A stretch of 23,161 nt of DNA from a virus (lineage: Duplodnaviria; Heunggongvirae; Uroviricota; Caudoviricetes), in the IMG/VR virus record IMGVR_UViG_2695420643_000009; one strand, given 5' to 3'. Positions 123 through 18,138 of the stretch are shown here, in pieces; the first letter of the stretch is position 1, and every line of letters begins with the position of its first letter. The translations under genes were made by a program, and so were the position numbers. The notes under the pieces were generated by a model. That model was given only the letters and a program-made list of their open reading frames with translations. It made no database searches and was not told the DNA's origin.

Positions 123-527
123 ATGGATCAGGTCGTTGTTTTTCAAAAGATGTTTGAGCAAGTGAGAAAAGAGCAAAACTTCTCCTGGTTTTATTCAGAA
201 TTAAAACATCACCGTATTGCACATTACATTTATTATCTGGCTACGGATAACATCAGAATTATTACTCACGATGACACGGTTTTGTTATTAAGAGGAACCA
301 GGAACCTGTTAAAAGTTAGTACGACCAAGAACCCTGCTAAAATAAAAGAGGCCGCATTGCTTCATATTTGCGGAAAATCTACATTTCGGGAATACTGTTC
401 AACACTAGCAGGCGCGGGCGTTTTCCGGTGGGTTACTGATGTTAATCATAACAAACGCAGTTACTACGCCATTGATAATACGCTTTTATATATTGAAGAT
501 GTAGAAAATAATAAACCATTAATCTAG
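123..527 (+). CDS. ycgX: DUF1398-family protein YcgX (chromosomal, function unknown)
   Basis: 134-aa ORF MDQVVVFQKMFEQVRKEQNF...; matches my recollection of E. coli YcgX in length and sequence, and sits next to iraM as in K-12. AAGAGG RBS 11 nt upstream of the ATG. Confidence 0.8.
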   Translation: MDQVVVFQKMFEQVRKEQNFSWFYSELKHHRIAHYIYYLATDNIRIITHDDTVLLLRGTRNLLKVSTTKNPAKIKEAALLHICGKSTFREYCSTLAGAGVFRWVTDVNHNKRSYYAIDNTLLYIEDVENNKPLI

Positions 528-736
528 CTAAAGTTGGATGCTTAAGAAATGCTTCATAATTCAGTAAGGCATTAGCATAATGGGAATAAAAGTACAGAGA
601 CTATCCCTATGGATGATAAATACTGTCCTTTTATTGCTACCCATAAATAATCACCATGCCAATACTATCAAATTGATATTTGAAATGTGATCACTTGACT
701 TTCTATACGTTATTTTATAACGGTTAATATATTTAT

Positions 737-787
737 AAAAACAACGGGTGTGCCATACGCCCGTTTCAATACTTAACGCACATGTGT
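737..787. repeat. Copy 1 of a ~48-bp terminator-like hairpin repeat (AAAACAACGGGTGTGCCATACGCCCGTTTCAATACTTAACGCACATGTG)
   Basis: About 85 percent identical by eye to 1593..1640, which is the hairpin just downstream of the icd stop. GC stem AACGGG.../...CCCGTT at 743..765, followed on the minus strand by a T-rich run. Confidence 0.5.
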
Positions 788-1222
788 TTTGGTTTAGTCA
801 TCATCCAGTTATATGTATTTTAGCCAGGAACAGGTTAAACCTTTCCTATATAACTCAAAAATTGAAACCTTATTCTCATGTCATGCTTATATTCATTATT
901 ATCGTTATATAAAAAGGCAACCATAATGTTTAGCAAATTGGCACAAAGTAGCATAAAGGCTATGTTTTAATTACAGGATGTTCAGTCATTTGAATGTATA
1001 ACATTATAGCTAAACAAATCTAAAACGAAGTGAATAATTTATTGTTTTCACTAAATCTCATTTTGTTTAACATCCATTGAGATTCCTTGCTTTAAATTTT
1101 GTTTTATATAAGCAATCGTTTTAATTAATTTATTTTTTGAAGGGGTAATATACTCATATGCAAAATAAAGAAATGAACATCCAAATGAACTATATTAAAT
1201 ACCGTGGGATAAGACATAACAA

Positions 1223-1546
1223 ATGAAGTGGATAGTAATTGACACGATAATTCAACCTTCATGCGGCATATCTTTTTCAGCCATATGGGGTAATATGAAA
1301 ATGATCATCTGGTATCAATCTACTATATTTCTCCCTCCTGGCAGTATATTTACACCGGTTAAATCTGGAATTATCCTTAAAGATAAAGAATATCCTATTA
1401 CTATTTATAACATCGCACCATTCAACAAGGATTTATGGAGTCTACTCAAAAGCAGTCAAGAGTGTCCTCCAGGAGAAAGAAAAATAACAAATAAATGTTT
1501 GCATAATAGTTGCATTATAAAAATATGCCCATATGGGCTCAAGTAA
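1223..1546 (+). CDS. iraM: Anti-adaptor protein IraM (inhibitor of RssB-mediated RpoS degradation)
   Basis: 107-aa [44 protein letters not shown]...KICPYGLK; recognised as IraM (same length, near-identical to K-12 as I recall it). AT-rich upstream region. Confidence 0.9.
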
Positions 1547-1602
1547 AGGGTTTTATATAAATATGCTCGATATGCTATTAATAATACCTACATAAATAAA
1601 AC

Positions 1603-1625
1603 AACGGGCGTGTTATACGCCCGTT
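1603..1625 (-). terminator. Intrinsic terminator of icd (hairpin plus T-run on the minus strand); copy 2 of the hairpin repeat
   Basis: Stem AACGGGCG/CGCCCGTT with 7-nt loop, followed on the minus strand by GTTTTATTTAT; lies 24 nt downstream of the icd stop codon (1649..1651, minus). Confidence 0.55.
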
Positions 1626-1648
1626 GCAATATTAAACACATGTAGTGA

Positions 1649-1813
1649 TTACATGTTCTTGATGATCGCATCACCAAATTCTGAACATTTCAGCAGTTTA
1701 GCGCCTTCCATCAGACGCTCGAAGTCATAGGTTACGGTCTTCGCATTGATTGCGCCTTCCATACCTTTAACAATCAGGTCTGCGGCTTCAGTCCAGCCCA
1801 TATGGCGTAACAT
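1649..1813 (-). pseudogene. icdC: icdC: detached 3'-terminal 55 codons of isocitrate dehydrogenase (original icd 3' end displaced by prophage integration)
   Basis: Minus strand translates to [54 protein letters not shown], the Icd C-terminus. Homology to icd stops abruptly at 1813 (upstream is LN*), with no N-terminal part of icd present. Confidence 0.9.
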
Positions 1814-2000
1814 TAGTTAGATGACTAAATCGTAACTATTTGACATAGCAACATAATTTTACTAATTTGCATATAACTCATTAGCCCTTAGCATTTCTAT
1901 AACTCATTGATTATAAACATGTGTTTTTGAGTTTTGATAACCATTTTTAGCATAAAAATAGCAGTTAACATTTGCAGAAGTTAAGATCAGAAAAAATTTT

Positions 2001-2014
2001 TACCCTGTAGGGTA
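2001..2014 (-). terminator. Possible weak intrinsic terminator downstream of mcrA
   Basis: Short palindrome TACCCT-AGGGTA followed on the minus strand by AAAATTTTTT; about 33 nt past the mcrA stop. Stem is short, so weak. Confidence 0.3.
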
Positions 2015-2046
2015 TTACGTCTTAAATGTGACTTTAATAAATAATT

Positions 2047-2880
2047 TTATTTCTGTAATCGGTTTATATTAACGTAAAGCATCTCGATTAGTTCTTTTGC
2101 ATTTTTACTATAGTGCAATTCTCTATGGCAATTCGGACAAAGGGCAACACAGTTATCTGTTGTATCAGCACCACCTGAAGACAGGGGAATTACATGATGC
2201 ACTTCCAAATATGGGTTTCCATCATTTAAATAAAACGGAGCATTTTTACCACAGTTTTCACATATACCTTTACTTTGCTGTAAAATCCAAGCTTTTACCA
2301 TCGGGTCTCGGACATAAACTTTTTGTAGTCTTTCTACCTCAACTGGTTTCCTGGAGCCCTCGGGTTGACTCAACGTTTTCTTAATTAATTTACTAACCCT
2401 CATATTCAGAAGCGATTCATCATCTGTAGGCTGTGAAAGCTCTGATAGTTCTCCACGTATTATAGACGCCCAAAAACTGTCACTATAAATACCTGGAACA
2501 TTTATCAATATTCGTTTCGTTCTATTGCCGGAAGGAATTTCCTTTCTCCCCGTACGACTAAAATAAGCCTGATAACCACACATCTTCAAGCGTATATCGC
2601 GGGGGCTATTACCAATCAAAGTAAAATATTCACCAGGATGGATTTTTCTTTCATCCAAAGAATGCATATGTTTTCTGACTGATGATGACGCCAGATATAC
2701 TACGACTTGGGATACACCAGAATCAACCAACCGTTCAATGATATAATCAAGAGCGATATTGTAATCTTTGTTTCTGTCACCCGGCCCCCACGACTCAAGG
2801 ATTAGACCATAAACACCATCCTCTTCACCTATCGAACACTCAGCTTTCAGTTCAATTCCATTGTTATCAAAAACATGCAT
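2047..2880 (-). CDS. mcrA: McrA, 5-methylcytosine-specific restriction endonuclease (HNH nuclease)
   Basis: 277-aa ORF; C-terminal HNH/zinc motif CENCGK...EVHHVIPLSSGGADTTDNCVALCPNCH visible; length and sequence match my recollection of K-12 McrA; position (phage end next to pin) as in e14. Confidence 0.9.
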   Translation of the reverse strand: MHVFDNNGIELKAECSIGEEDGVYGLILESWGPGDRNKDYNIALDYIIERLVDSGVSQVVVYLASSSVRKHMHSLDERKIHPGEYFTLIGNSPRDIRLKMCGYQAYFSRTGRKEIPSGNRTKRILINVPGIYSDSFWASIIRGELSELSQPTDDESLLNMRVSKLIKKTLSQPEGSRKPVEVERLQKVYVRDPMVKAWILQQSKGICENCGKNAPFYLNDGNPYLEVHHVIPLSSGGADTTDNCVALCPNCHRELHYSKNAKELIEMLYVNINRLQK

Positions 2881-2986
2881 AATATTAATCTTTAATCAAT
2901 TTTTCACGACAATACTACTTTTATTGATAAAATTGCAACAAGTTGCTGTTGTTTTACTTTCTTTTGTACACAAAGTGTCTTTAACT

Positions 2987-3541
2987 TTATTTATCCCCTG
3001 CAGGAAACCTCTTATACAAAGTTGACACACCAACATCATAGATAATCGCCACCTTCTGGCGAGGAACTCCTGATGCAATTAATCGTCCGGCCTGTTCCCA
3101 TTGTTCTGGTGTAAGTTTGGGACGACGTCCACCAATTCGTCCCTGTGCGCGAGCAGCTTCCAGTCCAGCTTTTGTTCTTTCAACAATCAGTTCACGCTCC
3201 ATTTCAGCCAGGGCACCCATCACATGAAAGAAAAAGCGCCCCATTGGGGTACTGGTATCAATTGAATCCGTCAGACTACGAAAGTTGATGCCTCGTTCGC
3301 GCAACTCCTCCACCAGCACGACAAGATGCCGCATACTGCGCCCTAGTCGGTCCAGTTTCCAGACCACCAGCGTATCACCTGCCGATAATGTCCTGAGCAG
3401 TTTTTTCAGTCCCGGCCTTTCGGACTTTGTACCGCTTATCTTGTCTTCAAAAATCAGCTCGCATCCTGCACAGTTCAGCGCATTACGTTGTAGATCTGTG
3501 TTCTGGTCATTTGTTGACACACGTACATAGCCAATAAGCAT
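2987..3541 (-). CDS. pinE: Pin DNA invertase (serine recombinase, Gin/Hin/Cin/Pin family)
   Basis: MLIGYVRVSTNDQNTDLQRNAL... with the catalytic-serine motif GYVRVST and a C-terminal HTH; 184 aa from the ATG at 3541, which has a GGGAG RBS 8 nt upstream. The ORF track's longer 196-aa start at 3577 has no RBS. Confidence 0.9.
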   Translation of the reverse strand: MLIGYVRVSTNDQNTDLQRNALNCAGCELIFEDKISGTKSERPGLKKLLRTLSAGDTLVVWKLDRLGRSMRHLVVLVEELRERGINFRSLTDSIDTSTPMGRFFFHVMGALAEMERELIVERTKAGLEAARAQGRIGGRRPKLTPEQWEQAGRLIASGVPRQKVAIIYDVGVSTLYKRFPAGDK

Positions 3542-3567
3542 GGTAGATCTCCCTGACAAAAGCAGGA

Positions 3568-4119
3568 ATGATGCCATTTGCTCGTTATTTCTGCATTTTC
3601 ATAAACGTTGGTTTGGGAGAAGGTTCGGCATTACCCGTTGGCGTGCCTGTTCCGTGGCCTTCCGCCACTCCGCCAACAGGCTGGCTGAAATGCAACGGTG
3701 CCGCTTTTTCTGCTGAAGAATACCCGGAACTGGCAAAGGCTTATCCGACAAATAAATTGCCTGATTTACGTGGTGAGTTTATTCGTGGCTGGGATGACGG
3801 GCGTGGAGTGGATAGCGGTCGTACTTTATTAACGAATCAAGAGCATGCAGTAATTTCTCATAATCATGGAATACCTACAAAAGTGGGGTCAGTTACTAAT
3901 ATCCCGTATGGAATAGAACAGGTTATATCTGATGAAACCATTTTTTCATCAGCAAAAACAGTTGGTGTGGATTACTGGTCTAACAGTGAGCGAGTTTTTA
4001 CTTATACCACTGGTGGAAGAAATGGTGCTGAATCAGTGAGTTCACCTGATGCCTCCTCTTTAATTAAAGAAACCAGACCACGGAACCTGGCATTTGCGTA
4101 TATCGTGAGGGCTGCATAA
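3568..4119 (+). CDS. stfE: Promoterless tail-fibre C-terminal (variable) cassette, stfE-like, duplicate copy A; lacks the constant N-terminal fibre domain
   Basis: 183-aa ORF whose residues from [32 protein letters not shown] to AYIVRAA are identical to the C-terminal 150 aa of the expressed fibre 6024..6824. DNA identity checked at several points. Confidence 0.55.
   Translation: MMPFARYFCIFINVGLGEGSALPVGVPVPWPSATPPTGWLKCNGAAFSAEEYPELAKAYPTNKLPDLRGEFIRGWDDGRGVDSGRTLLTNQEHAVISHNHGIPTKVGSVTNIPYGIEQVISDETIFSSAKTVGVDYWSNSERVFTYTTGGRNGAESVSSPDASSLIKETRPRNLAFAYIVRAA
3596..3621 (+). promoter_or_regulatory. pixL: 26-bp Pin crossover site (TTTTCATAAACG-TT-GGTTTGGGAGAA)
   Basis: Imperfect dyad with the same 12-2-12 architecture as gix (TTCCTGTAAACC-GA-GGTTTTGGATAA, from memory); lies between pin and the cassette; inverted-repeat identity with pixR starts exactly at the central dinucleotide (3608). 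Confidence 0.6.
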
Positions 4120-4550
4120 TGGATTACGCTGTATTAAATAACGAATTTATCGCCACCCAAGCAGGAAATATTACGGTTTATAACTATGATGGTGAAACAC
4201 GGGAATATATTTTCACATCAACTGAATATCTTGCTGTGGGTGTCGGCATTCCGGCATGTTCCTGTTTAGATGCTCCTGGCTCATACAAAACTGGGTATGC
4301 AATCTGCCGTTCTGCAGATTTTAACTCATGGGAATATGTGCCAGACCATCGTGGTGAAATCGTCTTTAGCACAGAAACAGGAGAATCAAAAGAAATCAAA
4401 GCTCCGGGTGATTACCCTGAAAATACAACCACTATCGCCCCTTTATCTCCATACGATAAATGGGATGGTGAGAAATGGGTAACCGATACTGAGGCACAGC
4501 ATAGCGCCGCAGTAGACGCGGCAGAAGCACAGCGCCAGTCACTGATTGAT
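3608..4550. repeat. Inverted repeat copy A (943 bp): stfE variable cassette plus first 144 codons of tfaE
   Basis: Perfect identity to the reverse complement of 5593..6535 wherever I spot-checked (boundaries, 4081..4140 vs 6001..6060, 4201..4260 vs 5881..5940); translated ORFs are identical. Confidence 0.85.
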
Positions 4551-4607
4551 TGGTTTGGGAGAAGCGGCAAAAAGGAATGTGGGCAACGGGGAAAACCAAA
4601 TCCCTGA
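4119..4607 (+). pseudogene. Truncated tail-fibre assembly gene: tfaE N-terminal 144 codons fused to 17 unrelated codons (WFGRSGKKECGQRGKPNP*)
   Basis: Identical to TfaE (5422..6024) through ...AEAQRQSLID, then diverges at 4551, where the sequence becomes the right half of a pix site. Confidence 0.6.
4538..4563 (+). promoter_or_regulatory. pixM: hybrid pix-like site (GTCACTGATTGA-TT-GGTTTGGGAGAA) with a canonical right half and a tfaE-derived left half
   Basis: Right half and centre identical to pixL/pixR; left half is tfaE coding sequence; the inverted-repeat identity ends inside the central dinucleotide (4550/4551). Confidence 0.45.
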
Positions 4608-5004
4608 TATGTCTTTCTGGACGGTTACTGGTGGCAATGGAAATTTTGTGATTCGTCAACCTGACGGGCTAATCACTCAGATGGTTACTGTAAGTATAAG
4701 CGGTCCAGTGGCGATGAATGGAATGACTGATAATGCTTATGCCATTACAGGTTCTAATAAGTCTTATATTGCCACAGCCACATTGCCCTTTGTATTTCCT
4801 AATAAGGTGCTGGGCGTTATCCCTCTGGTATCAACAACAGCCTATGGTGGTGTATCCAGTAATATTACAGGTTCATACGCGACGGCGGTTTGTTCTTTTG
4901 CCGCTGTCCGGGGGAATAATACGATTGTATTCAAAGTCGACAAACCACTGAATGCAGCCTTTCCTTCAGATACCAGCGTCTCAGCGTTAATCATTGGACG
5001 GTAA
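4549..5004 (+). CDS. Silent alternative tail-fibre variable cassette (Sv'); has no start of its own, would be fused in frame to the constant fibre domain after inversion
   Basis: Open frame ...IGLGEAAKRNVGNGENQIPDMSFWTV...VSALIIGR*. The GLGE codons (GGT TTG GGA GAA) are in the same phase as the GLGE at the Sc-Sv junction of the expressed fibre; followed directly by a tail-fibre assembly gene. Confidence 0.6.
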   Translation: MGLGEAAKRNVGNGENQIPDMSFWTVTGGNGNFVIRQPDGLITQMVTVSISGPVAMNGMTDNAYAITGSNKSYIATATLPFVFPNKVLGVIPLVSTTAYGGVSSNITGSYATAVCSFAAVRGNNTIVFKVDKPLNAAFPSDTSVSALIIGR

Positions 5005-5006
5005 TA

Positions 5007-5450
5007 ATGAACTCAGTATTCTTTTCACCCGGAAGTAAAAGTTTTTATCTACAAGAATTGTTTCCAGAATATGAGGATGCGGGAACGCTTCCAGATGATG
5101 TTATTGAAATTACCCGAGAAACATATGAGCAATTTCTTGGGCTGCATCCAGAAGGGAAAGAAATTGGCGCTGACAGTTCAGGACGGCCAATATGGATTAA
5201 TTCCCCACCGCCTTCAAAAGAGGATGAGGTGTTGATGGCTGAAATGAAAAAAATATCTTTGGTTTCAGAAGCCAATACCTACATCAATACCCATCAGTGG
5301 CCTGGCAAAGCTGCTATTGGTCGTCTGAAAGGTAACGAGCTGGAGCAATATAATTTATGGCTGGATTATCTGGACGCACTGGAACTGGTTGATCCCTCCA
5401 GTGCTCCAGATATTGAATGGCCTACGCCTCCGGCAGTTCAGGCCAGATGA
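5007..5450 (+). CDS. Tail-fibre assembly protein (alternative, tfaP-like), partner of the silent Sv' cassette
   Basis: 147-aa ORF MNSVFFSPGSKSFYLQELFPEYEDAG...IEWPTPPAVQAR; resembles the tail-fibre assembly chaperone family, including the C-terminal WP motif region; starts 3 nt after the Sv' stop; converges on tfaE. Confidence 0.7.
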   Translation: MNSVFFSPGSKSFYLQELFPEYEDAGTLPDDVIEITRETYEQFLGLHPEGKEIGADSSGRPIWINSPPPSKEDEVLMAEMKKISLVSEANTYINTHQWPGKAAIGRLKGNELEQYNLWLDYLDALELVDPSSAPDIEWPTPPAVQAR

Positions 5451-6024
5451 CATTCGGCGCGGTGCTGGTATCTGTTGCCGTCACCGCGTCAATGTAATCC
5501 AGCACAGCGTTAAGCTGGGTTGTTTCTGCCTGCGTCAGTTTCCGTCCGGCCTGTAATTTCAGCTGAATCAGACTGATGGAAGCCATTGCAGCATCAATCA
5601 GTGACTGGCGCTGTGCTTCTGCCGCGTCTACTGCGGCGCTATGCTGTGCCTCAGTATCGGTTACCCATTTCTCACCATCCCATTTATCGTATGGAGATAA
5701 AGGGGCGATAGTGGTTGTATTTTCAGGGTAATCACCCGGAGCTTTGATTTCTTTTGATTCTCCTGTTTCTGTGCTAAAGACGATTTCACCACGATGGTCT
5801 GGCACATATTCCCATGAGTTAAAATCTGCAGAACGGCAGATTGCATACCCAGTTTTGTATGAGCCAGGAGCATCTAAACAGGAACATGCCGGAATGCCGA
5901 CACCCACAGCAAGATATTCAGTTGATGTGAAAATATATTCCCGTGTTTCACCATCATAGTTATAAACCGTAATATTTCCTGCTTGGGTGGCGATAAATTC
6001 GTTATTTAATACAGCGTAATCCAT
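5422..6024 (-). CDS. tfaE: Tail-fibre assembly protein TfaE
   Basis: 200-aa [28 protein letters not shown]...VIWPELPEA; start overlaps the fibre stop; matches my recollection of e14 TfaE (200 aa). Confidence 0.85.
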   Translation of the reverse strand: MDYAVLNNEFIATQAGNITVYNYDGETREYIFTSTEYLAVGVGIPACSCLDAPGSYKTGYAICRSADFNSWEYVPDHRGEIVFSTETGESKEIKAPGDYPENTTTIAPLSPYDKWDGEKWVTDTEAQHSAAVDAAEAQRQSLIDAAMASISLIQLKLQAGRKLTQAETTQLNAVLDYIDAVTATDTSTAPNVIWPELPEA

Positions 6025-6535
6025 TATGCAGCCCTCACGATATACGCAAATGCCAGGTTCCGTGGTCTGGTTTCTTTAATTAAAGAGGAGGCATCAGGTG
6101 AACTCACTGATTCAGCACCATTTCTTCCACCAGTGGTATAAGTAAAAACTCGCTCACTGTTAGACCAGTAATCCACACCAACTGTTTTTGCTGATGAAAA
6201 AATGGTTTCATCAGATATAACCTGTTCTATTCCATACGGGATATTAGTAACTGACCCCACTTTTGTAGGTATTCCATGATTATGAGAAATTACTGCATGC
6301 TCTTGATTCGTTAATAAAGTACGACCGCTATCCACTCCACGCCCGTCATCCCAGCCACGAATAAACTCACCACGTAAATCAGGCAATTTATTTGTCGGAT
6401 AAGCCTTTGCCAGTTCCGGGTATTCTTCAGCAGAAAAAGCGGCACCGTTGCATTTCAGCCAGCCTGTTGGCGGAGTGGCGGAAGGCCACGGAACAGGCAC
6501 GCCAACGGGTAATGCCGAACCTTCTCCCAAACCAA
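5593..6535. repeat. Inverted repeat copy B (943 bp): expressed stfE variable region plus tfaE N-terminal part
   Basis: Reverse complement identical to 3608..4550 (see copy A). Confidence 0.85.
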
Positions 6536-6824
6536 GGTTTTCGAGAGCTGTTTTCACCGTGCCATCCGATTTGATATCGCCAAACGGATTCTTGCGGCTT
6601 AACAGCAGCGCACGAAGCGCGGTAAGCAACTGGTCGTGCCGCGCCTTCTCCAGGCTGGCACCGGATGCCTCCACCACGCTGCAGAGTTCTTCCTGCAACA
6701 TATCAAAGTAGTCATCATCCAGATCGGTGGCAGGCGTGCCAGTCTGGGGGTTACCACGGGTAAAACCGTTCTTACCCACGCCGAACTTATCCTTCTGCGC
6801 GGTTTTCGTGTCTATACGATGCAT
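6024..6824 (-). CDS. Side tail-fibre protein: constant N-terminal domain (about 116 aa) fused at a GLGE junction to the stfE-type variable C-terminal domain; currently the expressed fibre
   Basis: 266-aa [24 protein letters not shown]...; GGAG RBS 7 nt upstream; start 3 nt after the ymfQ stop; C-terminal half is duplicated at 3608..4119. Confidence 0.85.
6522..6547 (-). promoter_or_regulatory. pixR: 26-bp Pin crossover site inside the fibre gene (minus strand CTCTCGAAAACC-TT-GGTTTGGGAGAA)
   Basis: Near-palindromic; same right half as pixL but on the opposite strand (inverted orientation, as inversion requires); encodes the ...ENLG-LGE junction of the fibre. Confidence 0.6.
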
Positions 6825-6827
6825 GGA

Positions 6828-7412
6828 TTACTCCGGATATTTAAAAATTACGTAGGTATGCGACGGGCAGAGTTTGTTAAGCACACACTCGACAACGGTG
6901 TCACCCCAGATACGCAGTGCGGAATCACAGGGATCGCCACATGTCATCCAGGTGGTGTTGGTGGTGGTTGGCATGTTGACCTGCCAGTAATACCGCCATT
7001 CCGGCGCATTCACCGCGTCAGTACAGGCCGATGAGCAGGTGAACGTGCTTTTGTCGTATCGCGTGATGGTGGCATCTGGTCTGCCCAGGGCAGCAAGCTG
7101 TGCAAGATAAAAATCCTCGTTGATGCCGCCCGCCAGGTTAACCTTCGCATCCAGCCGTTGCTGACGCTGGCGAAGGGTCTGCGTTCCCGCCGGAATACAT
7201 TCATCCGGCAGACCGCACAGACGCTCCCAGCGGTTTATCAGTTCAGTGGTGGTGCGCGGATCCAGCTCCCGCATCAGGGCATCCGCACGCTGATGAACAC
7301 GGGTTAATGACGGTGCCGCACCGGCAATCGCCGGATCGCTGGCTGACCACGCCGGACCGGGCGGCAACAGTGCCGATAACAGGCGGATGTAATCATCGTT
7401 TGTCACGTCCAT
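6828..7412 (-). CDS. ymfQ: YmfQ-like tail/baseplate protein (Mu gp48-like, DUF2313)
   Basis: 194-aa ORF directly upstream of the fibre gene; same length and position as e14 ymfQ as I recall it. Confidence 0.75.
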
Positions 7413-8461
7413 GAAATCGTCCCCAGTACCGCCAGTTCGTTTTTCGCAATGGAGATATTGTCCACCGGTGCAAGCAACTGATGGCTGTATTCCCCGTTCG
7501 CACCGGAAATCGCCTCACTGATACGCGATACCTTCAGTTCTCCCTGCGGATAACCATCACGCAGCAGGAACGAACGCAACTCCGCGGTAATGGCAGCCCG
7601 TATTTCCGGTGTGTCCGGCGTCACGCGGATATGAAAATCCACTTTATGCGCCACCGGCCTGAATACATACAAATCAGAGCCTGCCACCGGGGCCAGTGGC
7701 TCAATGTGTTGTCTTGCCGCCGTTTCCGTTGATTCTTCCGGAATGGGATTAATCAGGTCACTGCTGGCAATCATCACACCGACAGTTCCCGTTCCCATCC
7801 AGTGACGGTATGTCCATGCGCGGGTAATGCCGGGCACTTCTTTAGCCCAGACGACATAGTCCCCGTCAGCCCCGCCCTGAGGCGTCCAGTAATACCGCTC
7901 AATGACGCGGGCGCGCCACGTTTCCAGCTCTTCAGTATCAAATCCACCTGTCAGGGTATCTGCCACGCCGGAAGACGGCAGACCATTAACCGGCGTGACC
8001 AGGATTAATGACGTACCGTCGTCAGCGTTACCGACCGCGCCTGCACTTGAGCAGGCGATCGGCACGCGCAGGACACCACCGGAGCTGGTTGCATCGGCAG
8101 TTGCCGTGTACTGAACCAGGTCATCGCGCTGAATAACACTCCCGGCGGTCACCTTCAGGCCATCGCTGACACCTTCCCAGCGCATATACCCGCTGGCAGC
8201 CGTGGCCCCCTTGCGCGGACACCGTTTCATCGCAGCATGTCGCGCCAGCCAGGACTCATCGCACAGGTCAGGCAGCATGTTCATTGCCAGATAATCGATG
8301 TACCCGTAAACCGTATGCAGCGCCGCCGCATACACCTTTGCCCGCACGTCTTCATCCATGCGCCGGAGCGTGTCGCTGACGTCCAGCCTGGCGAATAAAT
8401 CGTTACGGAGCATACTGATATTTTCTGCCAGCGTCGGGCGCTGAAATTCACTGTCCGCCAT
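7403..8461 (-). CDS. Baseplate J-like protein (Mu gp47-like; full-length counterpart of the e14 jayE fragment)
   Basis: 352-aa ORF; position between gp46-like and ymfQ-like genes; baseplate-J family resemblance. Confidence 0.8.
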
Positions 8462-8876
8462 GCGTTATCGCACTCCACAGATCATCAAAAGAAATCATTA
8501 CCGGTCCGTCACGACGCCAGAGAGTGATACTGTTACCCAGTTCATTAATCCCGGTGCGGTGGATATCCAGATCAATACGGGACACCACGCCGTCATCAAT
8601 CATCCATTGCAGGCATTCGCGGATATACCCCCTTACCGTCAGCACCAGCTGATTGGTCAGTTTGCTGCGCTGAAGCAGCCACAGTCGGGAGCCGTAACGG
8701 TCATTCTGTACCGCAGGCCAGGTATCCCCCCACCATCCCATCGGGACGTCGGCGTTGTCATCAGGCTCCGCCCGCCGCCAGGTAAACAGGGAAATCACCA
8801 CGGCGCGGGTCAGCGGATCCAGCGGTGCGCTGGCGCAGGTGCGTTTACCGTTCACCGTCAGCCACAGTTCCATCAT
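8448..8876 (-). CDS. Baseplate protein, Mu gp46-like
   Basis: 142-aa ORF with the Trp-rich character of the gp46 family; overlaps both neighbours. Confidence 0.65.
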   Translation of the reverse strand: MMELWLTVNGKRTCASAPLDPLTRAVVISLFTWRRAEPDDNADVPMGWWGDTWPAVQNDRYGSRLWLLQRSKLTNQLVLTVRGYIRECLQWMIDDGVVSRIDLDIHRTGINELGNSITLWRRDGPVMISFDDLWSAITHGGQ

Positions 8877-9421
8877 GCCTCCATCGATTTATCAGGTTTG
8901 TCGGTGTTACTGCCCTGACCGTTCTCTCTGTGACGATGCCCGTTATAGGCAAGCCGCATCGCTGACATGGTGGTGCCGCTGGAGTCGCACAGGTCTTTCA
9001 CCTGTCCTGTCACTTCCAGGTCCATTTCAAAACGTGCTTTAGGTGAATTGCGAAACGTGATCGTTTTACCTGCACCGTCCACCACGATCCCCTCCCGGGT
9101 CAGCGTCACGGACTGCCCCTGATCGTCATAGACAGCCACCTCACCCGTCTGCAGCCCTTTCAGGCGGTAGCGCCGGTCCGACACCGTAACAACCACCGCA
9201 TGAGAACGGTCACCATCCGGAAACAACACCACCGCTTCCGCACCGCTGTTTGCCCTTGCGGTAAAACCGTAGGGTTCAAGATGTTCAACCCCGGCTTTGG
9301 GTTCACCGGCAATCAGGGACACATCCACGGTCTGACATTTCGTGGCGGCACTGATGCTTTTCACCACCGCCCGCCCAATCAGGCCGAGGAGTTGTCGCTG
9401 CATGGCTTCAATCGCCTTCAT
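8873..9421 (-). CDS. Baseplate assembly/spike protein (gpV-like, Mu gp45-like)
   Basis: 182-aa ORF; ATGA overlap with the upstream gene; gpV-family resemblance. Confidence 0.7.
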   Translation of the reverse strand: MKAIEAMQRQLLGLIGRAVVKSISAATKCQTVDVSLIAGEPKAGVEHLEPYGFTARANSGAEAVVLFPDGDRSHAVVVTVSDRRYRLKGLQTGEVAVYDDQGQSVTLTREGIVVDGAGKTITFRNSPKARFEMDLEVTGQVKDLCDSSGTTMSAMRLAYNGHRHRENGQGSNTDKPDKSMEA

Positions 9422-10500
9422 CAGAACGGGTCCTCCTGTACTCTGGCTTTTTTCTTTTTCCGCGCGCCGGGGGCTTCGGGTTCAGGCAGATAAGCATCAG
9501 GTGGGCCGACACGGATTTCCGTCAGGGTGCCATTCTGGTCCTGAGTAAACGTGACTTCCGAGACAAGCAGTTCGGTATTGTCGAAACCACAGACCGGATC
9601 GAAGACAATCACCCGCTGGTTGGGCTGCCACAGCGTACCGTTACCCTGTCGCCAGCCCTGCACCACATAGGTGGTTTCATCCGTCCGCGCCGCCCGTTGT
9701 CGGGCTTCAAAGTCAGCACGCGCAATACAGCCTGCCCCCGTAGCCTGCCCTGTCTGCCTGATATACATCGGACGGTAACGGGCAATAAATGCGTCCTCTG
9801 TGCGGGCCCGCAGCGCAGTTGTGGTGGCCTCACCGAAATCATCGTCGTTTCCGGCACGCTGCCCCGCCACCTGGTAAACAGAAAACCGCTCCCGGATACT
9901 CTTCTCCGTATCGCAGGAAAGGATGTTTTCCCCGAGTACCAGCGCGGTATGTGCCCGCGTTGAGCCAATACCGCCAATCACCAGCCTGCCGTGCGGGTCG
10001 TCATAAGCCAGCGCCTGCTGCTGACCGAGTATTTTGTTAATCACCTCGATCACCGTTTCACCGTGATCAGGCTGGACATCAGGAATAACACCCGACGGCG
10101 CACCGCTGTTCACCACCTCAATGCCGAAGGGCGCAGCAAGCGCCTGCGCAATCTGTACCAGTGATCGTCCGTTAAACTGTGTCGGTTCAGCTGCACAATC
10201 AATCAGGTCAGCGGTCAGACTGCGTCCGGCAATACCGGTGCTGACCGAACGGGCATCGTAACGAACGGGCGTCGCCTCCACCCAGCCGGTGATCACCAGC
10301 TCATCACCAATCAGCACCTCCACTTTTGAACCGTTTTTAATGCGCGGCTGAAGCGTGGTGATACCCTCATCACCCGGCCACTGGCGGGTGATCTCCACAC
10401 TGAAATCCCGCGCCAGTCGTTCAACACCGGCACCGATGCGCACCGATGTCCAGCCATTCCACTCCCGGCCATTTACCCGTAGCGTGACATTGTCGTTCAT
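9421..10500 (-). CDS. Tail/baseplate hub protein (P2 gpD-like, Mu gp44-like)
   Basis: 359-aa ORF; C-terminal Lys-rich tail (ARKKKKARVQEDPF); synteny with the Mu-like tail module. Confidence 0.65.
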   Translation of the reverse strand: MNDNVTLRVNGREWNGWTSVRIGAGVERLARDFSVEITRQWPGDEGITTLQPRIKNGSKVEVLIGDELVITGWVEATPVRYDARSVSTGIAGRSLTADLIDCAAEPTQFNGRSLVQIAQALAAPFGIEVVNSGAPSGVIPDVQPDHGETVIEVINKILGQQQALAYDDPHGRLVIGGIGSTRAHTALVLGENILSCDTEKSIRERFSVYQVAGQRAGNDDDFGEATTTALRARTEDAFIARYRPMYIRQTGQATGAGCIARADFEARQRAARTDETTYVVQGWRQGNGTLWQPNQRVIVFDPVCGFDNTELLVSEVTFTQDQNGTLTEIRVGPPDAYLPEPEAPGARKKKKARVQEDPF

Positions 10501-11825
10501 TGCACTGGCACCTTCAGAGGGATCACCGGCACAAAGCCGGGATGCGTAATGGCATTACGCCGGATAATGTCCGCATCACGCGCCGCGTTATCAAACCAGG
10601 TCGCCGCCAGCACCAGCGCGGGTAAAACCTCATCCGGTGTGCGCTGAATGATCCGTGCAGACTGTTCAAGGCGCGTGTTGATATCCGCATTCAGATCTGC
10701 TTTCACCCGGCGCAGTGCCAGAAACAGCGCATCACTGGTTGTACGGGACAACTCCTTATCAATTGCCGTATTCAGTGTGTCGCGAATGTCAGTCAGTTCT
10801 TCCCACGTTGGCAGGTCAACCGTGTTTTTCACCGCCGGTGCATTGTTCAGTGCCGGATGCGTGACGGAAGGCCAGCCAGTGCTCTGCGCAGGTGTTGTTG
10901 ACTGCCCCACTGCGGCATTCTGCATCACCGCGGAAGTTGTTGGCGCAGGCAATCGGGTGACGGCATACGCCGCTTCGCTGATTGCGGTCGTACGAAGGGT
11001 GCTGGCAACCTCGTTACGCTGATGCGTCGCCGTGGCGGTGGTTTTACTGTCCGTTTTCCAGACGCCGCGCGGTTGCAGATCGCTGCCGAGGCTGACACCG
11101 GAAAGCGTTTTGATCATGGTGACCAGGTCGCTGGCGTTACCATAAAGGCGTTTCCCGGTACGCCACATTTTCTGCATCTGCTCAACGAAATTTTTGCCTG
11201 ACGATGGTGGCGGCAGAAGTACCGAGATATCCCCCTGCAACAGCCTGGCAGCATCCGATACGGCAGAATCCACCACTTTCATCGCATCAGAAACATACCC
11301 AAGCATTGTGCTGGCATTACCGACGACGTCGTTCTGCACAAAATCCGCCACGCCATCGATACTGAAACCGCTGAAGCTGTCACTGATGCAGTCATCCAGT
11401 GCAGAACAGGATGACATCAGCGTCTGCGCCGTCGCCGCACCTGATGTGGGGTAAGAGAGTTCTCCCGCTTCGACAAACTTCAGGTCAAAGCGGACAATAC
11501 GCCCTTCACTCTTCGATGTGCTGACCCGAACCTCTCCGTCAACACAGACTTTCAGCTCACCGTAAGTCGGATGGACAAGCGTGCCGGGACCGGGTTTATT
11601 CAGCGCGTCAATCAGACGATCGCGCTGGTCAAAGCAGTCATCTCCCACCACATAAGCTGTGATGGACGGGCGGAAAGTGATTTTCCCCAGGTCTTCGGTA
11701 TAGGGTTTGTCGCGGTTCGGGTATTCGTGCGTTTCCACACGACGACCGGTTCCCGCACTTTCTTCTTCAACCTTAAACGGCACACCGCGAAATGACGCGT
11801 CCTGAAGTCTGTCTTTCCACGTCAT
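10497..11825 (-). CDS. DNA circularisation protein (Mu gp43-like, N-terminal DNA_circ_N domain)
   Basis: MTWKDRLQDASFRGVPFKVEEESAGTGRRVETHEYPNRDKPYTEDLG... is typical of the family N-terminus. Start taken at the ATG at 11825 (GGAG 6 nt upstream) rather than the RBS-less track start at 11867. Confidence 0.7.
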   Translation of the reverse strand: MTWKDRLQDASFRGVPFKVEEESAGTGRRVETHEYPNRDKPYTEDLGKITFRPSITAYVVGDDCFDQRDRLIDALNKPGPGTLVHPTYGELKVCVDGEVRVSTSKSEGRIVRFDLKFVEAGELSYPTSGAATAQTLMSSCSALDDCISDSFSGFSIDGVADFVQNDVVGNASTMLGYVSDAMKVVDSAVSDAARLLQGDISVLLPPPSSGKNFVEQMQKMWRTGKRLYGNASDLVTMIKTLSGVSLGSDLQPRGVWKTDSKTTATATHQRNEVASTLRTTAISEAAYAVTRLPAPTTSAVMQNAAVGQSTTPAQSTGWPSVTHPALNNAPAVKNTVDLPTWEELTDIRDTLNTAIDKELSRTTSDALFLALRRVKADLNADINTRLEQSARIIQRTPDEVLPALVLAATWFDNAARDADIIRRNAITHPGFVPVIPLKVPVQ

Positions 11826-11885
11826 ATAAACTCCGTACATAAAAAATCCCACCGGAGTGGGACTCATTAACAGATTAATTTTTCA

Positions 11886-13721
11886 TTACCTGCCAAAGCG
11901 CGTATAGCCAACATCATGGCTGACATCAAAACCGCTGGATCGCGTTTCCATAACCCGCATACCCGGAGGCGAATTCACAAAAGAGACCTTGATCTCACCA
12001 TCAACTTTTGGCGCAGAAGCTTTGTTAATCATGAAGGGATTCGGGCCTGTGGCATCGGAGGCGTTGTTTGACTGAGCCGGATCTACCGCCTGATAAGGTG
12101 TGTATCCCCGTGCCGGTATTCCCGTCCCATAAGCATCATAAGCACCCGCGCCCCACTGCGCAGAGTTAATGGCATCGACCGTGTCACCGGAACTGTCGGT
12201 AAACCACTCAATAATTGGCTTCAGCTTGTCCCACATATCCTGAAACCACTTAACAACCGGTCCCCAGTTATTGATTACCATCCCCAGCGGCGACCAGGCA
12301 AAAACCTTCTTCAGAAGTTCCCAGCCAGCCTCAAAATAAGGACCAATGGTTTCCCAGAGCTTCTTGAAATAAGGTCCGACAACATCCCAGTTAGTGATAA
12401 TTAATCCCGCAGCCAGGGCTATCGCCGTCGCAATCATTCCAATCGGCGTCATCGACATGATCCTGCTGACAATACTGATGGCACCGCCAACGCCCATCAA
12501 TCCCAGTTTCAGAATCGCAAGACCGGCAGCAAGCCCGACGACGCCGCGAATAACCCGGGGATTTTCATCCGCAAACTTCGTGAATTTTTCCCCCAACTCC
12601 CCCAGCCATTGCGTGATATTTTTAGCGTCACCAGAAAATGCGCCGCCAATAGCTGCAAGACCGTTAGTTGCGGTCCCCGTCATTGCCTCCCACAGGTTGG
12701 ACAGCGTACCAAGCTGTGCCTGAACACGTTTATTCAGGCTGGCCTGTTTATTCATCTTCTGCTGGATCTGATCGTAACCATCCTTTCCTTTATCGATCAG
12801 AGCATTGACCACCTGAAGGGTTTCGGCATCATCACCAAATATTGCCTTAAGTACACCTGTTCGCTTAACGTCGGTCAGTTTTCGCAGCTTTGCCAGTTGC
12901 TTAAACATGTTATCAAGACCGCCAAAACTCCCTTTGCCGTCAGTAAAATCGAGCTGCACTCCGAGTTTCTGGCGGGCCATGACTTTATTGACGTCCCTGA
13001 TTTTCTTAACGCTTAATCCGGACTGGATAACTTTTCGCAGGGCATTACCTGCCGACTCCCCGTTCATCCCCATCTGATCCATCATGACGCTGATAGGGGC
13101 AAGGCTCTGTGCAGCCTGAAGACCGTCCTTATTCACCATCTTCAGAACAGAACTGGTTTTAGTGAAGAAGGACAACATGTTGGTATCGTCAACGCCCAGA
13201 TAAAACGCCTTCTGGATAGTATCGAACAGCCCCATCATGTCTTCTGAGGCCGTTCCGGTAGCATCCTGCATCTTTGCTGCAAACTCAGCAGCCGCTTCCG
13301 GTGTTTTTTTCAGTTGTACCGCAAGATAAGCTGTCGCTTTACCCACACCACCCAGGATGTTTTCTGCCGGGATCCCCTGACGCACCAGCATCTGCATCAT
13401 GTTCTGGAAATCAGCCGTTGTACCGGGTAGCTGGTTACCCAGGCCAATAGCCAGTTTATTGATGTCCTGAAAGCGCTTTCCAACCTCGCCGTTCGCATCC
13501 ATCATGGCGACTTTCAGCCCGGTAGCGGCGTTTTCCTGATCGGCATAAGATTTCAGGGAAAGCGTCAGCCCCGCTGCCAGTCCGCCACCAAGCGCCAGCC
13601 CACCCTGTGACGCTTCTTCCGCCTGGCGTTTAAATCCCCGGATTTTCTTTTGCATTTTCGACAGCGCGGGAGAAAGCCTGTCGACACCGGTGATCAACGC
13701 CTTAAGCTCAAATTCAGCCAT
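11886..13721 (-). CDS. Tail tape measure protein
   Basis: 611-aa ORF; Ala/Gly-rich helical sequence with hydrophobic segments (GVVGLAAGLAILKLGLMGVGGAISIV...) and a Trp-rich C-terminal region; position after the chaperone pair. Confidence 0.85.
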   Translation of the reverse strand: MAEFELKALITGVDRLSPALSKMQKKIRGFKRQAEEASQGGLALGGGLAAGLTLSLKSYADQENAATGLKVAMMDANGEVGKRFQDINKLAIGLGNQLPGTTADFQNMMQMLVRQGIPAENILGGVGKATAYLAVQLKKTPEAAAEFAAKMQDATGTASEDMMGLFDTIQKAFYLGVDDTNMLSFFTKTSSVLKMVNKDGLQAAQSLAPISVMMDQMGMNGESAGNALRKVIQSGLSVKKIRDVNKVMARQKLGVQLDFTDGKGSFGGLDNMFKQLAKLRKLTDVKRTGVLKAIFGDDAETLQVVNALIDKGKDGYDQIQQKMNKQASLNKRVQAQLGTLSNLWEAMTGTATNGLAAIGGAFSGDAKNITQWLGELGEKFTKFADENPRVIRGVVGLAAGLAILKLGLMGVGGAISIVSRIMSMTPIGMIATAIALAAGLIITNWDVVGPYFKKLWETIGPYFEAGWELLKKVFAWSPLGMVINNWGPVVKWFQDMWDKLKPIIEWFTDSSGDTVDAINSAQWGAGAYDAYGTGIPARGYTPYQAVDPAQSNNASDATGPNPFMINKASAPKVDGEIKVSFVNSPPGMRVMETRSSGFDVSHDVGYTRFGR

Positions 13722-13881
13722 GTGTGCGTTTCTCCTGCTCTATCCTGTTTGCCTGACTGACCAGCAAGGGAATTTCACTGATCGGCATATTCAGCAATTC
13801 GAAGGGATTAATGCGCCAGTAGCTGGCGCAGTCAAAGAAGCGATCAGTGAGGTATTCAGCCGTCAGGCCTGGAGGAAAAAA
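13714..13881 (-). CDS. Frameshift extension (T part) of the tail assembly chaperone; expressed only as a G-T fusion by -1 frameshifting
   Basis: -1 frame relative to 13863..14132; slippery heptamer T-TTT-TTC (plus-strand 13875..13881 GAAAAAA) at the start of the overlap; ORF runs to a stop at 13714 overlapping the tape-measure start. Confidence 0.55.
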   Translation of the reverse strand, partial: FFPPGLTAEYLTDRFFDCASYWRINPFELLNMPISEIPLLVSQANRIEQEKRTHG

Positions 13882-14132
13882 CCAGCCACAAGCCACGCCG
13901 CTGCATTCAGGTCTGCCGGAGACATCTGGTCGACAGAGCTTTGCGGCACTTTCGCCAGCCGCACAATGTATTTCGACACCACATGCGCCAGAAGTCTGAC
14001 GGACTCATCCTGATTCATCTGGTAGGGATACCCCAGCTCGCGGACATCCTTCCCGGTGGGTTCATCAAACTCCAGTACGGAGAGTGTCTCGCCATGAGCA
14101 ATAATCGGTTTCTTTAACTCAAGCTCTTTCAT
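13863..14132 (-). CDS. Tail assembly chaperone (gpG-like)
   Basis: 89-aa ORF between the tail tube and tape measure genes; ATGA overlap with the tube gene; ends ...AGFFLQA* over the slippery site. Confidence 0.7.
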   Translation of the reverse strand: MKELELKKPIIAHGETLSVLEFDEPTGKDVRELGYPYQMNQDESVRLLAHVVSKYIVRLAKVPQSSVDQMSPADLNAAAWLVAGFFLQA

Positions 14133-14488
14133 TACTGGTAATCCCCTTCTTCACCGTGGAACTCAAGATCAACCGTGCCTTCTTCGGCATTATGGTTCGC
14201 TTCGCCGTGCAGCCAGGCAGACGACAATACATAGACCTGACCGTTCGCCAGCTCGGCAGTGATGGTCATCTCAACAGACGAGGTGATTTTGCTCACCGGA
14301 AAATTCTTCGGCACCTTGAAGGTTCCTTTGACATAAGGCGCGCGGTGAGTTTCCTTGCGGTCCACTGAACCATCCAGACCGATGATGTCATCGTTAACCG
14401 TTTTGTTCATGGGCACCTCAATGCCGCCGGTCAGCGATAGCTGCTGACCGTCAATTTTGAAATAACAGGTTCCCCCGATACGGGCCAT
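14132..14488 (-). CDS. Tail tube protein (Mu gpM-like)
   Basis: 118-aa ORF immediately after the sheath gene with ATGA overlap. Confidence 0.7.
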   Translation of the reverse strand: MARIGGTCYFKIDGQQLSLTGGIEVPMNKTVNDDIIGLDGSVDRKETHRAPYVKGTFKVPKNFPVSKITSSVEMTITAELANGQVYVLSSAWLHGEANHNAEEGTVDLEFHGEEGDYQ

Positions 14489-15984: not shown

Positions 15985-16138
15985 CGGTGTTCACCTTTTT
16001 ATTCACGCGCCGGATATCACCCGCTGCTTCACGGCGCAGCCAGTAGTTGTTCTCATCAACATTTCGCCCTTCGGCGGGCAAAAGGTCGCCGTGGGCAGGG
16101 TCAGGCACTGACCGCCCTTTAACAGGTTTCACAAACAT
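15968..16138 (-). CDS. Small hypothetical protein (56 aa) preceding the sheath gene; absent from the ORF track because it is under 60 aa
   Basis: ATG at 16138 with GAGGA just upstream; MFVKPVKGRSVPDPAHGDLLPAEGRNVDENNYWLRREAAGDIRRVNKKVNTDDDKL; stop overlaps the sheath start; fills the only gap in the operon. Confidence 0.3.
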   Translation of the reverse strand: MFVKPVKGRSVPDPAHGDLLPAEGRNVDENNYWLRREAAGDIRRVNKKVNTDDDKL

Positions 16139-16146
16139 GATGATCC

Positions 16147-16707
16147 TCAGGAAGGAAGGGGTATTTCGGTGTGATGTTCGATATCGCCGTCAGGCCCGTT
16201 ACCGGGATCGAGATAATCAACATCAATCGCCAGCGTTCGCAGTTCATCCAGACTGTTCAGGTCATCCTGCTGGCGGGTATCGTCTTCGGTCAGCTCGCTG
16301 ATGACCGAAAAATCGAACTGATAAATCAGCTCATGACGATTCAGATCCAGCAGCGTGCCGCCGTCATAGGTAATCGGGTTACCACACGCTTCCGGGTTCC
16401 AGCCCAGCAGAGCCTTAAAGAGCATCTGCCGGACATCGTCCACCACATCATACGAGGCAAACTGACCGCGCTCATCACGCCCGTTACTCAGTATGACAAC
16501 CACGGAGAAGCCCTCTTTCAGCTCCTGCCAGTAGTCGGTCTGGCTTTTGTTTTCTCCCGGAGAGTCATCACCCGGTACCACATATGCCGCCGGGAGCTTC
16601 AGCTTTCCGACCTCCGGCAGATTTTTGAACTGGGCCGCGCCTGCCACCCGGTTTTCAAAATACGGACAGCGGGCACGCAGCGCAGCAATAACAGGAGTCA
16701 GTTTCAT
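16147..16707 (-). CDS. Putative tail terminator / tail completion protein (Gp37-like)
   Basis: 186-aa ORF in the head-to-tail junction block; assignment by position and weak family resemblance only. Confidence 0.4.
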   Translation of the reverse strand: MKLTPVIAALRARCPYFENRVAGAAQFKNLPEVGKLKLPAAYVVPGDDSPGENKSQTDYWQELKEGFSVVVILSNGRDERGQFASYDVVDDVRQMLFKALLGWNPEACGNPITYDGGTLLDLNRHELIYQFDFSVISELTEDDTRQQDDLNSLDELRTLAIDVDYLDPGNGPDGDIEHHTEIPLPS

Positions 16708-17915: not shown

Positions 17916-17917
17916 AC

Positions 17918-18118
17918 TCAGCCCTCTTTACTGGTCGTGGCTTTTTTCTCTTTTGTCGCTTTACTGCTTTTTGCACTGGTTCCGCGCTCTGCTAACCCGG
18001 CCTGAAGTGCAATCTCCTGCACCCGGGCAGGAAGCGCCCCGTCGTCATACTCACCGGCCCGAATGACCTCAACACGCATACCGTCCGGTGACCATTTCAG
18101 ATCTTGTTTCAGGATCAT
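17918..18118 (-). CDS. Small lysine/serine/threonine-rich hypothetical protein after the capsid gene
   Basis: 66-aa ORF; C-terminus TSAKSSKATKEKKATTSKEG; preceded by a GC hairpin. Confidence 0.4.
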   Translation of the reverse strand: MILKQDLKWSPDGMRVEVIRAGEYDDGALPARVQEIALQAGLAERGTSAKSSKATKEKKATTSKEG

Positions 18119-18138
18119 GATTCTTCACCCGTCAGAAC

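Follow-up and report, generated by a model that had tools for sequence, protein, structure and literature searches.

The gene iraM lies beside icd between two similar copies of a short hairpin element, which raises the question of how the gene came to be bracketed in this way and what the two copies are. We addressed this question in a stretch of DNA of 23,161 nt (IMG/VR virus record IMGVR_UViG_2695420643_000009), the whole of which is referred to here as the window; the features of the locus are collected in Table 1. A preliminary description of this DNA had read the pair as a relic of integration at the 3' end of icd that brought in the AT-rich iraM gene, and had offered a small regulatory or sRNA terminator as the alternative. 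The window is E. coli DNA of a non-K-12 type, and its positions 530-1660 are 100% identical to strain 120899 and ~95% identical to K-12. The prophage that starts at 1814 carries an mcrA-like HNH gene (2047-2880), an invertase gene (2987-3577), Mu-like tail genes and genes for capsid, portal and terminase, and in the tail region it shares 96-98% identity with phages SfV and SfIV. Because this prophage, integrated in icd, displaced the short icd fragment, the fragment is the equivalent of icdC; in K-12 and Nissle-type genomes its counterpart carries the annotation of a partial isocitrate dehydrogenase. The small proteins encoded by ymgL and ymgK have been detected experimentally in K-12 (PMC6001520). 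Copy 2 is located 51 nt past the iraM stop codon and 5 nt past that of icd.

Table 1. Features of the iraM locus, with positions counted from the first base of the window
Feature	Position	Strand	Basis
ycgX (DUF1398 protein), outer neighbour of the locus	123..527	+	ORF and annotation as ycgX
ymgL, gene for a 36-aa small protein	580..690	+	Carried over from the RefSeq annotation of L001
Stretch resembling the attL-side arm of the e14 family, with TTTTGATA(A)C repeats, abutting copy 1 on the left	688..730		Alignment
Copy 1 of the icd-terminator element, outer (displaced), with weakened stem	738..785 (48 nt); hairpin 743-765		Alignment and folding
Islet interior, 812 bp	786..1597	+	Empty-site alignment, composition
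ymgK, gene for a 14-aa small protein within the islet	926..970	+	Annotation
iraM, RssB anti-adaptor (Pfam PF11183), convergent with icd	1223..1546	+	ORF, annotation, Pfam
Copy 2, icd-proximal terminator, with minus-strand T-tract	1598..1643 (46 nt); stem-loop 1601-1627	-	Folding, terminator scan
Palindrome ACATGTA-gtgat-TACATGT across the icd stop codon (1649-1651)	1638..1656		Sequence; predicted 7-bp hairpin
Displaced icd 3' end, 54 codons, icdC equivalent	1649..1813	-	ORF
SfV/SfIV-like, e14-related prophage integrated in icd	1814..23161, past the window end		ORFs and comparisons

Copy 1 and copy 2 are in direct orientation and, aligned over 48 columns with two 1-nt gaps, agree at 41 of them (85%). 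When copy 1 was compared with the rest of the window, the highest local alignment score was 57, obtained with copy 2; with copy 2 masked it fell to 23, and 100 random windows generated under a dinucleotide model gave 22.9 ± 2.1 with a maximum of 29. A 28-nt core pattern had two matches in the window, and 100 shuffles yielded none. These figures bear out the two direct repeats of about 85% identity that had been seen around iraM by eye, and only their limits needed adjustment, since those given before (737..787 and 1593..1640) are a few bases off; the repeats span 738-785 and 1598-1643 and end in ACATGT. Each runs from an A-tract (AAAAC) through the hairpin to ACATGT, so that the right end of the homology is the left arm of the ACATGTA-N5-TACATGT palindrome. 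On the far side, similarity ends at AAAAC|AACGGG in E. coli and in the other species and icd-targeting elements compared, and the same point is the left edge of the homology between copy 1 and copy 2.

A 59-nt query containing copy 1 was found at a median of 2 and a maximum of 4 places per genome across 5,417 E. coli genomes, and a 48-nt test sequence gave matching counts; the many copies at unrelated loci that characterize REP/BIME, ERIC or MITE families were not found in these genomes. When one genome per bacterial species was scanned for the exact pattern, 15 loci were returned, and every match lies directly 3' of the icd 3' end, apart from one hairpin in a member of the Aeromonadaceae that sits in an unrelated context. 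The icd-linked matches come from E. albertii, E. whittamii, two other Escherichia species, three Citrobacter species and E. coli/Shigella, all with GGGCGTGTTATACGCCC as the icd-proximal hairpin. Two metagenome bins labelled Sutterella and Veillonella also match 3' of icd, yet their contigs look like E. coli contamination; one metagenome-bin locus (L010) is near-identical to the E. coli sequence that lacks iraM. In the 8-kb loci fetched from outgroup Escherichia and Citrobacter there is one hairpin each, directly 3' of icd, and iraM is absent. Within the one-genome-per-species scan the pair at 860-bp spacing was found only in E. coli/Shigella.

Of 5,426 E. coli genomes, 3,933 (~72%) have the interior of the islet (786-1210), each at one place and nowhere else. 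It is missing from the other ~28% of these complete genomes, among them B2 strains such as Nissle. In iraM-less genomes the element is present as a single copy, whose left flank is that of copy 1 (the ymgL/ycgX side) and whose right flank is that of copy 2 (icd). This empty site was seen in SYNB1934 (a Nissle derivative), in S3 and in at least 9 further loci, including prophage-prediction contigs, and the breakpoints of the indel are the edges of the repeats. As the outer flanks are joined at a single copy, one repeat plus the 812-bp interior make up an 860-bp indel bounded by the repeats. An integration relic would sit badly with a repeat dispersed over many unrelated loci, or with iraM-less genomes carrying both copies. 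The genome-wide search found no such dispersal and each of the iraM-less genomes compared has one copy; given these results and the one-copy sites with the outer flanks, the integration proposed in the preliminary description fits the locus.

Relative to the inter-species consensus, every copy 1 has a CC loop in place of TT, CAATAC in place of CAATAT, and an extra GC before ACATGT. The single copies of iraM-less genomes have the consensus at all three of these sites. We also searched the 5,417 genomes for the chimera that a crossover in the longest identical block would leave behind (CC loop with an icd-type right half), and found no match of 99% or more, the best (95.8%) differing by the two loop mismatches. 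Together with the one-hairpin outgroups, these comparisons favour the single-copy state as ancestral, and a gain of iraM would be the likelier direction of the event. In none of the sampled outgroups is ycgX adjacent to icd, and the empty site could therefore in principle derive from one old deletion in which the repeats crossed over within their first 15 nt. Islet sequences diverge by 5-7% among E. coli lineages, a figure that bears only on the age of the event and suggests that it is old.

Elements with icd as their integration target bring along a copy of its terminator. Integrase genes adjoin the terminator in two of the loci examined (L009 and L012) and in O157:H7, with the end of the tyrosine integrase gene ~65 nt from the hairpin; this spacing is found in E. 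albertii and on a contig whose icd-side integrase gene is complete. In the lambdoid remnant of O157:H7, xis and int (plus strand) run into the terminator. The attL of K-12 e14 has TTTTGATAAC arm repeats and a stem-variant hairpin of its own, AACGGGAGCGTTACGCTCCCGTT, at the homologous position. The flanks of K-12 e14 and of Citrobacter braakii align at corresponding positions with the stretch at 688..730 of the window. For the iraM-less (Nissle-type) allele of this arm the score was 15-17 where shuffles gave 8-9 ± 1.5 (z about 5, 0/300), and the allele in the window scored lower, with z = 3.0 against e14 (6/300) and z = 3.4 against C. braakii (0/300). The flank of copy 2 that faces iraM did not resemble arms of the e14 or integrase type (z at most 1.3).

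The islet itself has a G+C content of 22-35%. Its 812-bp interior holds only ymgK and iraM, without an integrase, excisionase or other mobility gene, and it has no nucleotide match among 50,697 phage records; an intact version of the iraM-bearing element was not found. Homologues of IraM with 52-71% identity are present in Stx2 and other lambdoid prophages and on plasmids. Those of lambdoid prophages (57-71% identity) are located between the Q antiterminator gene and the holin gene, antisense to the late genes, and some adjoin stx2AB (Stx2c phages), while other iraM-like genes lie beside IS91 on a plasmid and beside IS21-type genes on unclassified contigs. Judged by these sequence comparisons, IraM is a member of a mobile gene family carried as phage and plasmid cargo. 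In a DNA alignment of iraM with one phage and one plasmid copy, homology was confined to the ORF and the flanks were unrelated, so that descent of the chromosomal gene from a lambdoid prophage is a matter of inference. In one lambdoid prophage (L079) the order is DUF1398 (+), lysis genes (-), iraM-like gene (+) and Q (-), so that the family of ycgX is represented there as well. Allowing up to 2 mismatches, we found 4 matches to the PhoP box (KGTTTA-N5-KGTTTA) where 4.8 were expected.

It has been stated that iraM lies on prophage e14 (PMC4045071). This placement can be corrected: in K-12 the e14 feature ends at 1211412, at the icdC boundary, and iraM lies beyond icdC, and in the prophage-free strain MS6192 iraM is found beside an intact icd. 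The gene is outside e14 and persists without it.

The two copies differ in what they appear to do at present. On the minus strand, copy 2 forms an 11-bp stem with 7 G-C pairs and a TTTTATTTAT tail (-27.3 kcal/mol, z = -5.0), and by sequence and folding criteria it is predicted to be a textbook intrinsic terminator; a terminator scan called copy 2 only, not copy 1. In MS6192 it ends the intact icd gene. Copy 2 is named correctly as the icd terminator in the preliminary description, except that in the window it follows a displaced 54-codon fragment; it is predicted to terminate icd (here icdC) and probably the convergent iraM as well. The hairpin of copy 2 is nearly invariant (pi 0.004, 1/23 columns variable), an invariance that is partly ascertainment since many loci were fetched with an intact-hairpin pattern, and the contrast with copy 1 was alike in BLAST-derived genomes. 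For copy 1, pi is 0.080 with 5/23 columns variable, against 0.02-0.07 for other non-coding and islet segments. Rfam 15 returned no family at the gathering score and nothing on copy 1; below threshold there were tpke11 on copy 2 (26.4 bits against a gathering score of 43) and one snoRNA model.

Copy 1 folds at -13.4 kcal/mol on the plus strand, with two G.U pairs, and at -9.9 kcal/mol on the minus strand, with C.A mismatches. Its inferred original form folds at -15.3 kcal/mol, and lineages now range from -9.7 to -13.4 kcal/mol. Six sequence variants were found among iraM-positive lineages, in which the stem-weakening changes differ by lineage; in K-12 both partners of one stem pair have changed, leaving a C.T mismatch. 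The minus strand of copy 1 keeps a U-tract, and its stem with C.A mismatches has no gene upstream; no promoter-like site was found upstream of copy 1 on that strand. On the plus strand the stem holds, followed by a tail, UUUCAAUACUU, that makes a poor U-tract. The confinement of G.U pairs to the plus strand had suggested strand-specific selection on copy 1, an idea that fails across lineages. The earlier statement that copy 1 is orphaned stands as far as minus-strand genes are concerned, but it is not wholly orphaned because ymgL, on the opposite strand, ends just upstream, 47 nt away. The stretches that vary most across the locus include the copy 1 hairpin, which speaks against its being kept by selection as an sRNA or regulatory terminator; its sequence variation points to a relic with a decaying stem under little or no selection, which may still play a weak part in ending ymgL transcripts on the plus strand. 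A Term-seq supplement has one 3' end internal to ycgX, none under ymgL, ymgK or iraM and no entry at copy 2, and a SMRT-Cappable-seq supplement has no entry for the locus.

We propose, with a probability of roughly 70%, that the repeats are att-type scars of a Campbell-type integration at the terminator 3' of icd, made by an iraM-bearing element that has since decayed. The ancestral order would have been ycgX-ymgL, a single hairpin and the convergent icd, an arrangement that would persist in iraM-less E. coli. The incoming element, like other icd-integrating elements, would have carried a ~48-bp homologue of the icd terminator region. It would have passed through a circular intermediate, with a predicted circle (attP) junction of ...CCTACATAAAT-[48-bp element]-GTTTTGGTTTAGTCATC..., and recombined with the chromosomal copy by a single crossover, which would place one copy on each side of the insert. 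Of the element only 812 bp would then have remained: ymgK with the promoter region of iraM, the iraM gene and 51 bp downstream of it. Copy 2 would have kept terminating icd, and probably convergent iraM too, while copy 1 would have been stranded at the end of the ycgX-ymgL unit with its stem decaying. The reading is strengthened because IraM homologues are mobile cargo and because elements integrating at icd carry the terminator. Of the features by which att repeats are recognised, the locus has a segment bounded by repeats, an empty site with one copy, a known target and foreign or mobile cargo. A recombinase encoded within the element is missing, and the segment is therefore best called a decayed integrative islet. 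The crossover would have fallen between the icd stop codon and the hairpin, with the 48-bp duplication being the whole att homology and internal decay following; the recombination core is possibly the ACATGTA-N5-TACATGT palindrome at the icd stop codon.

Other accounts of the pair can be weighed against this reading. That the similarity arose by chance, or that the element belongs to a dispersed family of REP, BIME or MITE type, has only the hairpin shape in its favour and is already refuted, by a score of 57 set against 22.9 ± 2.1 in random windows, by the count of at most 4 copies per genome, and by enterobacterial matches that are all icd-linked. Reversing the polarity of the event gives another account, which we consider unlikely: the two-copy, iraM-positive state would be ancestral, and iraM-less strains would have lost the islet by recombination between the repeats. 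The iraM-less strains in question are of B2 type, Nissle and CFT073 being examples. RecA-dependent deletion can be supported by direct repeats of this length (46-48 nt) and original identity (~92%), and both the presence of the islet in ~72% of genomes and its 5-7% divergence in several lineages suggest that it is old. Such a deletion is hard to reconcile with the single copies that have the ymgL-side flank, 9/9 of which have the consensus TT loop and no copy-1-specific change, with 0 chimeric copies in 5,417 genomes, and with the fetched loci of other Escherichia and Citrobacter, which have one hairpin each; it also leaves the origin of the duplication unexplained. More improbable again is that copy 1 is a selected RNA element, whether the terminator of a minus-strand sRNA or an insulator or terminator that closes ycgX-ymgL ahead of the iraM promoter. 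Bidirectional terminators shared by convergent genes are common, and copy 1 lies 47 nt past the ymgL stop codon, folds in every lineage (-9.7 to -15.3 kcal/mol) and in the lineage of the window keeps its plus-strand stem through G.U pairs. Against this stand the stem-loop pi of 0.080, the lineage-specific breaks in the stem with the C.T mismatch of K-12, the poor plus-strand U-tract and a terminator scan that was silent on copy 1, as well as the Term-seq supplement searched, in which ymgL, ymgK and iraM have no 3' end beneath them. The small regulatory or sRNA terminator of the preliminary description found no backing either in view of this variability, the absence of an Rfam family and the lack of a minus-strand promoter-like site.

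A further alternative retains integration but moves its geometry, and we regard it as the less probable course while giving it appreciable weight. The crossover would have fallen within icd, at the standard e14/21 core ~165 bp ahead of the stop codon; the module brought by the element, an icd 3' end with its terminator, would have become copy 2, and the older module, displaced, would have become copy 1. Deletions of the older icd fragment and of nearly the whole prophage would have followed, stopping at the edge of the terminator. A phage-21-like lambdoid prophage is an example of such a carrier. All characterised icd-targeting elements here are arranged in this way, with the displaced module keeping an icd fragment of 165-168 bp, and the order and orientation of ycgX (+), iraM (+), terminator and icd fit a lambdoid prophage at icd, as in L079 and O157:H7. 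However, no trace of icd is left to the right of copy 1: positions 781-1100 compared with 1641-1960 gave a local score of 16, where shuffles gave 12.1 ± 1.8 with a maximum of 19. For this course the deletion must also have stopped no more than a few bases from the edge of the terminator, a coincidence that a crossover at the terminator itself does not need. On balance we lean, without great firmness, towards integration at the terminator.

Several known systems resemble this locus in part. When e14 or phage 21 integrates at icd, attL has the phage-borne icd 3' end and the displaced host end becomes icdC. The islet shares this hot spot with them, and in both cases the target end is duplicated as direct repeats, in e14 and phage 21 because the incoming element carries a replacement 3' end. 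The attL module of K-12 e14 has a terminator hairpin at the homologous position, and the e14-related prophage of the window has displaced the icdC equivalent in the same manner. Unlike e14 and phage 21, the islet duplicates only the 48-bp terminator region past the stop codon rather than ~165 bp of coding sequence plus terminator; it is without an integrase, its place is beyond icdC and thus outside e14, and strains with no prophage at icd have it too.

Islands linked to tRNA and tmRNA genes likewise have AT-rich cargo, vary in presence between genomes with a single-copy empty site, and are flanked by direct repeats, tens of bp long, that come from the target's 3' end, whereas the target here is the terminator of a protein-coding gene and the islet is tiny (812 bp), its mobility genes gone. 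With lambdoid 'moron' cargo, such as stx2AB in the slot between Q and the holin gene, the locus has in common that genes of the IraM family fill that slot antisense to the late operon, and that chromosomal iraM is AT-rich; the flanks of chromosomal iraM, however, are not shared with the phage or plasmid copy aligned. A bidirectional terminator is a parallel for the hairpin itself, as a single hairpin with an A-tract and a T-tract lies between ycgX-ymgL and icd in the empty site and between iraM and icd in iraM-positive strains, yet the canonical T-tract is there only for termination on the minus strand (icd), and activity on the plus strand is only predicted.

A limited literature search found no paper describing the duplicated icd terminator. 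For iraM, whose part in regulating RpoS stability has been much studied, these results offer a concrete history of acquisition with defined boundaries (an islet at 786-1597 plus one repeat), and they explain why ~28% of E. coli lack the gene at a clean single-copy site. They also define the upstream limit of the DNA that arrived with iraM, which is useful for studies of its control by H-NS and PhoP. Beyond this, the locus is one more case of serial accretion at a phage integration hot spot and otherwise ordinary genome archaeology.

A broader reading, which we put forward only tentatively and consider rather doubtful as a whole, joins three suggestions. The icd terminator with the stop-codon palindrome may be a second att site, distinct from the e14/21 core and used by another integrase. 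The ycgX-ymgL unit with its e14-like arm, the iraM islet, icdC and the current prophage may form a stack of decayed phage modules. IraM, a PhoP-controlled anti-adaptor of RpoS, may be a domesticated lambdoid cargo gene, or 'moron'. A separate observation at the same locus, inverted matches between the left end of the islet (786-802 and 807-823) and the prophage junction (1820-1836 and 1862-1878), was attributed to chance: the matches are 17 nt long, 82% complementary and non-collinear, and a dozen pairs of equal quality occur in 3.5 kb.

Between ymgL and copy 1, the left-hand copy of the icd terminator hairpin element, lies a segment that aligns in matching position with one arm of the e14 family of icd-integrated elements (see the table). 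The allele of this flank carried by iraM-less (Nissle-type) genomes gave an alignment score of z ~5 against the e14-family arm (0/300 shuffles), while the window's own allele scored lower, at z 3.0-3.4. The presence of an e14-like arm to the left of copy 1 suggests, on the strength of these alignments, that the supposedly chromosomal ycgX-ymgL side is itself what remains of an earlier element that targeted icd. If so, the locus would be a stack of att modules.

Features of the icd locus and its flanks, in window coordinates
Feature	Position	Description
e14-like arm	688-730	between ymgL and copy 1; position-matched alignment to the arm that e14-family elements have on their attL side (TTTTGATAAC repeats)
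Palindrome	1638-1656	ACATGTA-gtgat-TACATGT; spans the icd stop codon; predicted 7-bp hairpin
Prophage	1814-23161	e14-like right end (mcrA-like HNH gene, invertase); extends past the window end

In the prophage occupying icd in the window, the genes for tail, capsid, portal and terminase are also present and complete, and the tail region shares 96-98% identity with phages SfV and SfIV. This prophage appears to be a more complete relative of e14, which in K-12 survives as a remnant. At the attL junction of K-12 e14 (locus L075, ~500-560) the terminator borne by e14 is the icd terminator hairpin with a variant stem, AACGGGAGCGTTACGCTCCCGTT; its A-tract and flanks are the same as in the icd element. 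The e14 variant is a natural case of an altered stem with pairing retained. A published statement places iraM itself on prophage e14 (PMC4045071). This assignment was rejected, as in K-12 (loci L075 and L020) iraM lies past icdC and outside the boundary annotated for e14, and it is also ruled out by strain MS6192, where iraM sits beside an intact icd with no prophage there.

Homology between copy 1 and copy 2, the terminator copy at icd, stops exactly at the left arm of the palindrome, and this non-coding arm is kept across Escherichia and most Citrobacter loci. Copy 2 also gave an Rfam match to tpke11 (window 1574-1644, minus strand) that, at 26.4 bits (E = 0.005), falls short of the gathering score of 43 and is probably mere terminator-hairpin resemblance.

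IraM-family genes, 57-71% identical, occur in lambdoid prophages (L018, 4001-4324; L076-L081; L086-L087), where they occupy the Q-to-holin cargo slot and are antisense to the late genes. In Stx2c/Stx2a phages the IraM-family gene directly adjoins stx2AB, and O157:H7 is without the chromosomal iraM islet. One lambdoid prophage with an iraM-like gene (L079) also carries a DUF1398 gene of the ycgX family (50-529) after its lysis genes, and the pair matches the window's ycgX and iraM in order and orientation.

The iraM islet is interrupted by insertion sequences in some E. coli strains. In strain ECMA0423 (L005) an IS1 end adjoins the 45-nt iraM 3' flank and iraM is gone, and other strains have IS1 or IS200C insertions inside the iraM locus (hits H2, H24, H26 and H33). 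Twenty E. coli records match the region upstream of iraM with no more than 60-80% identity; these could represent a very divergent islet allele or a second context.
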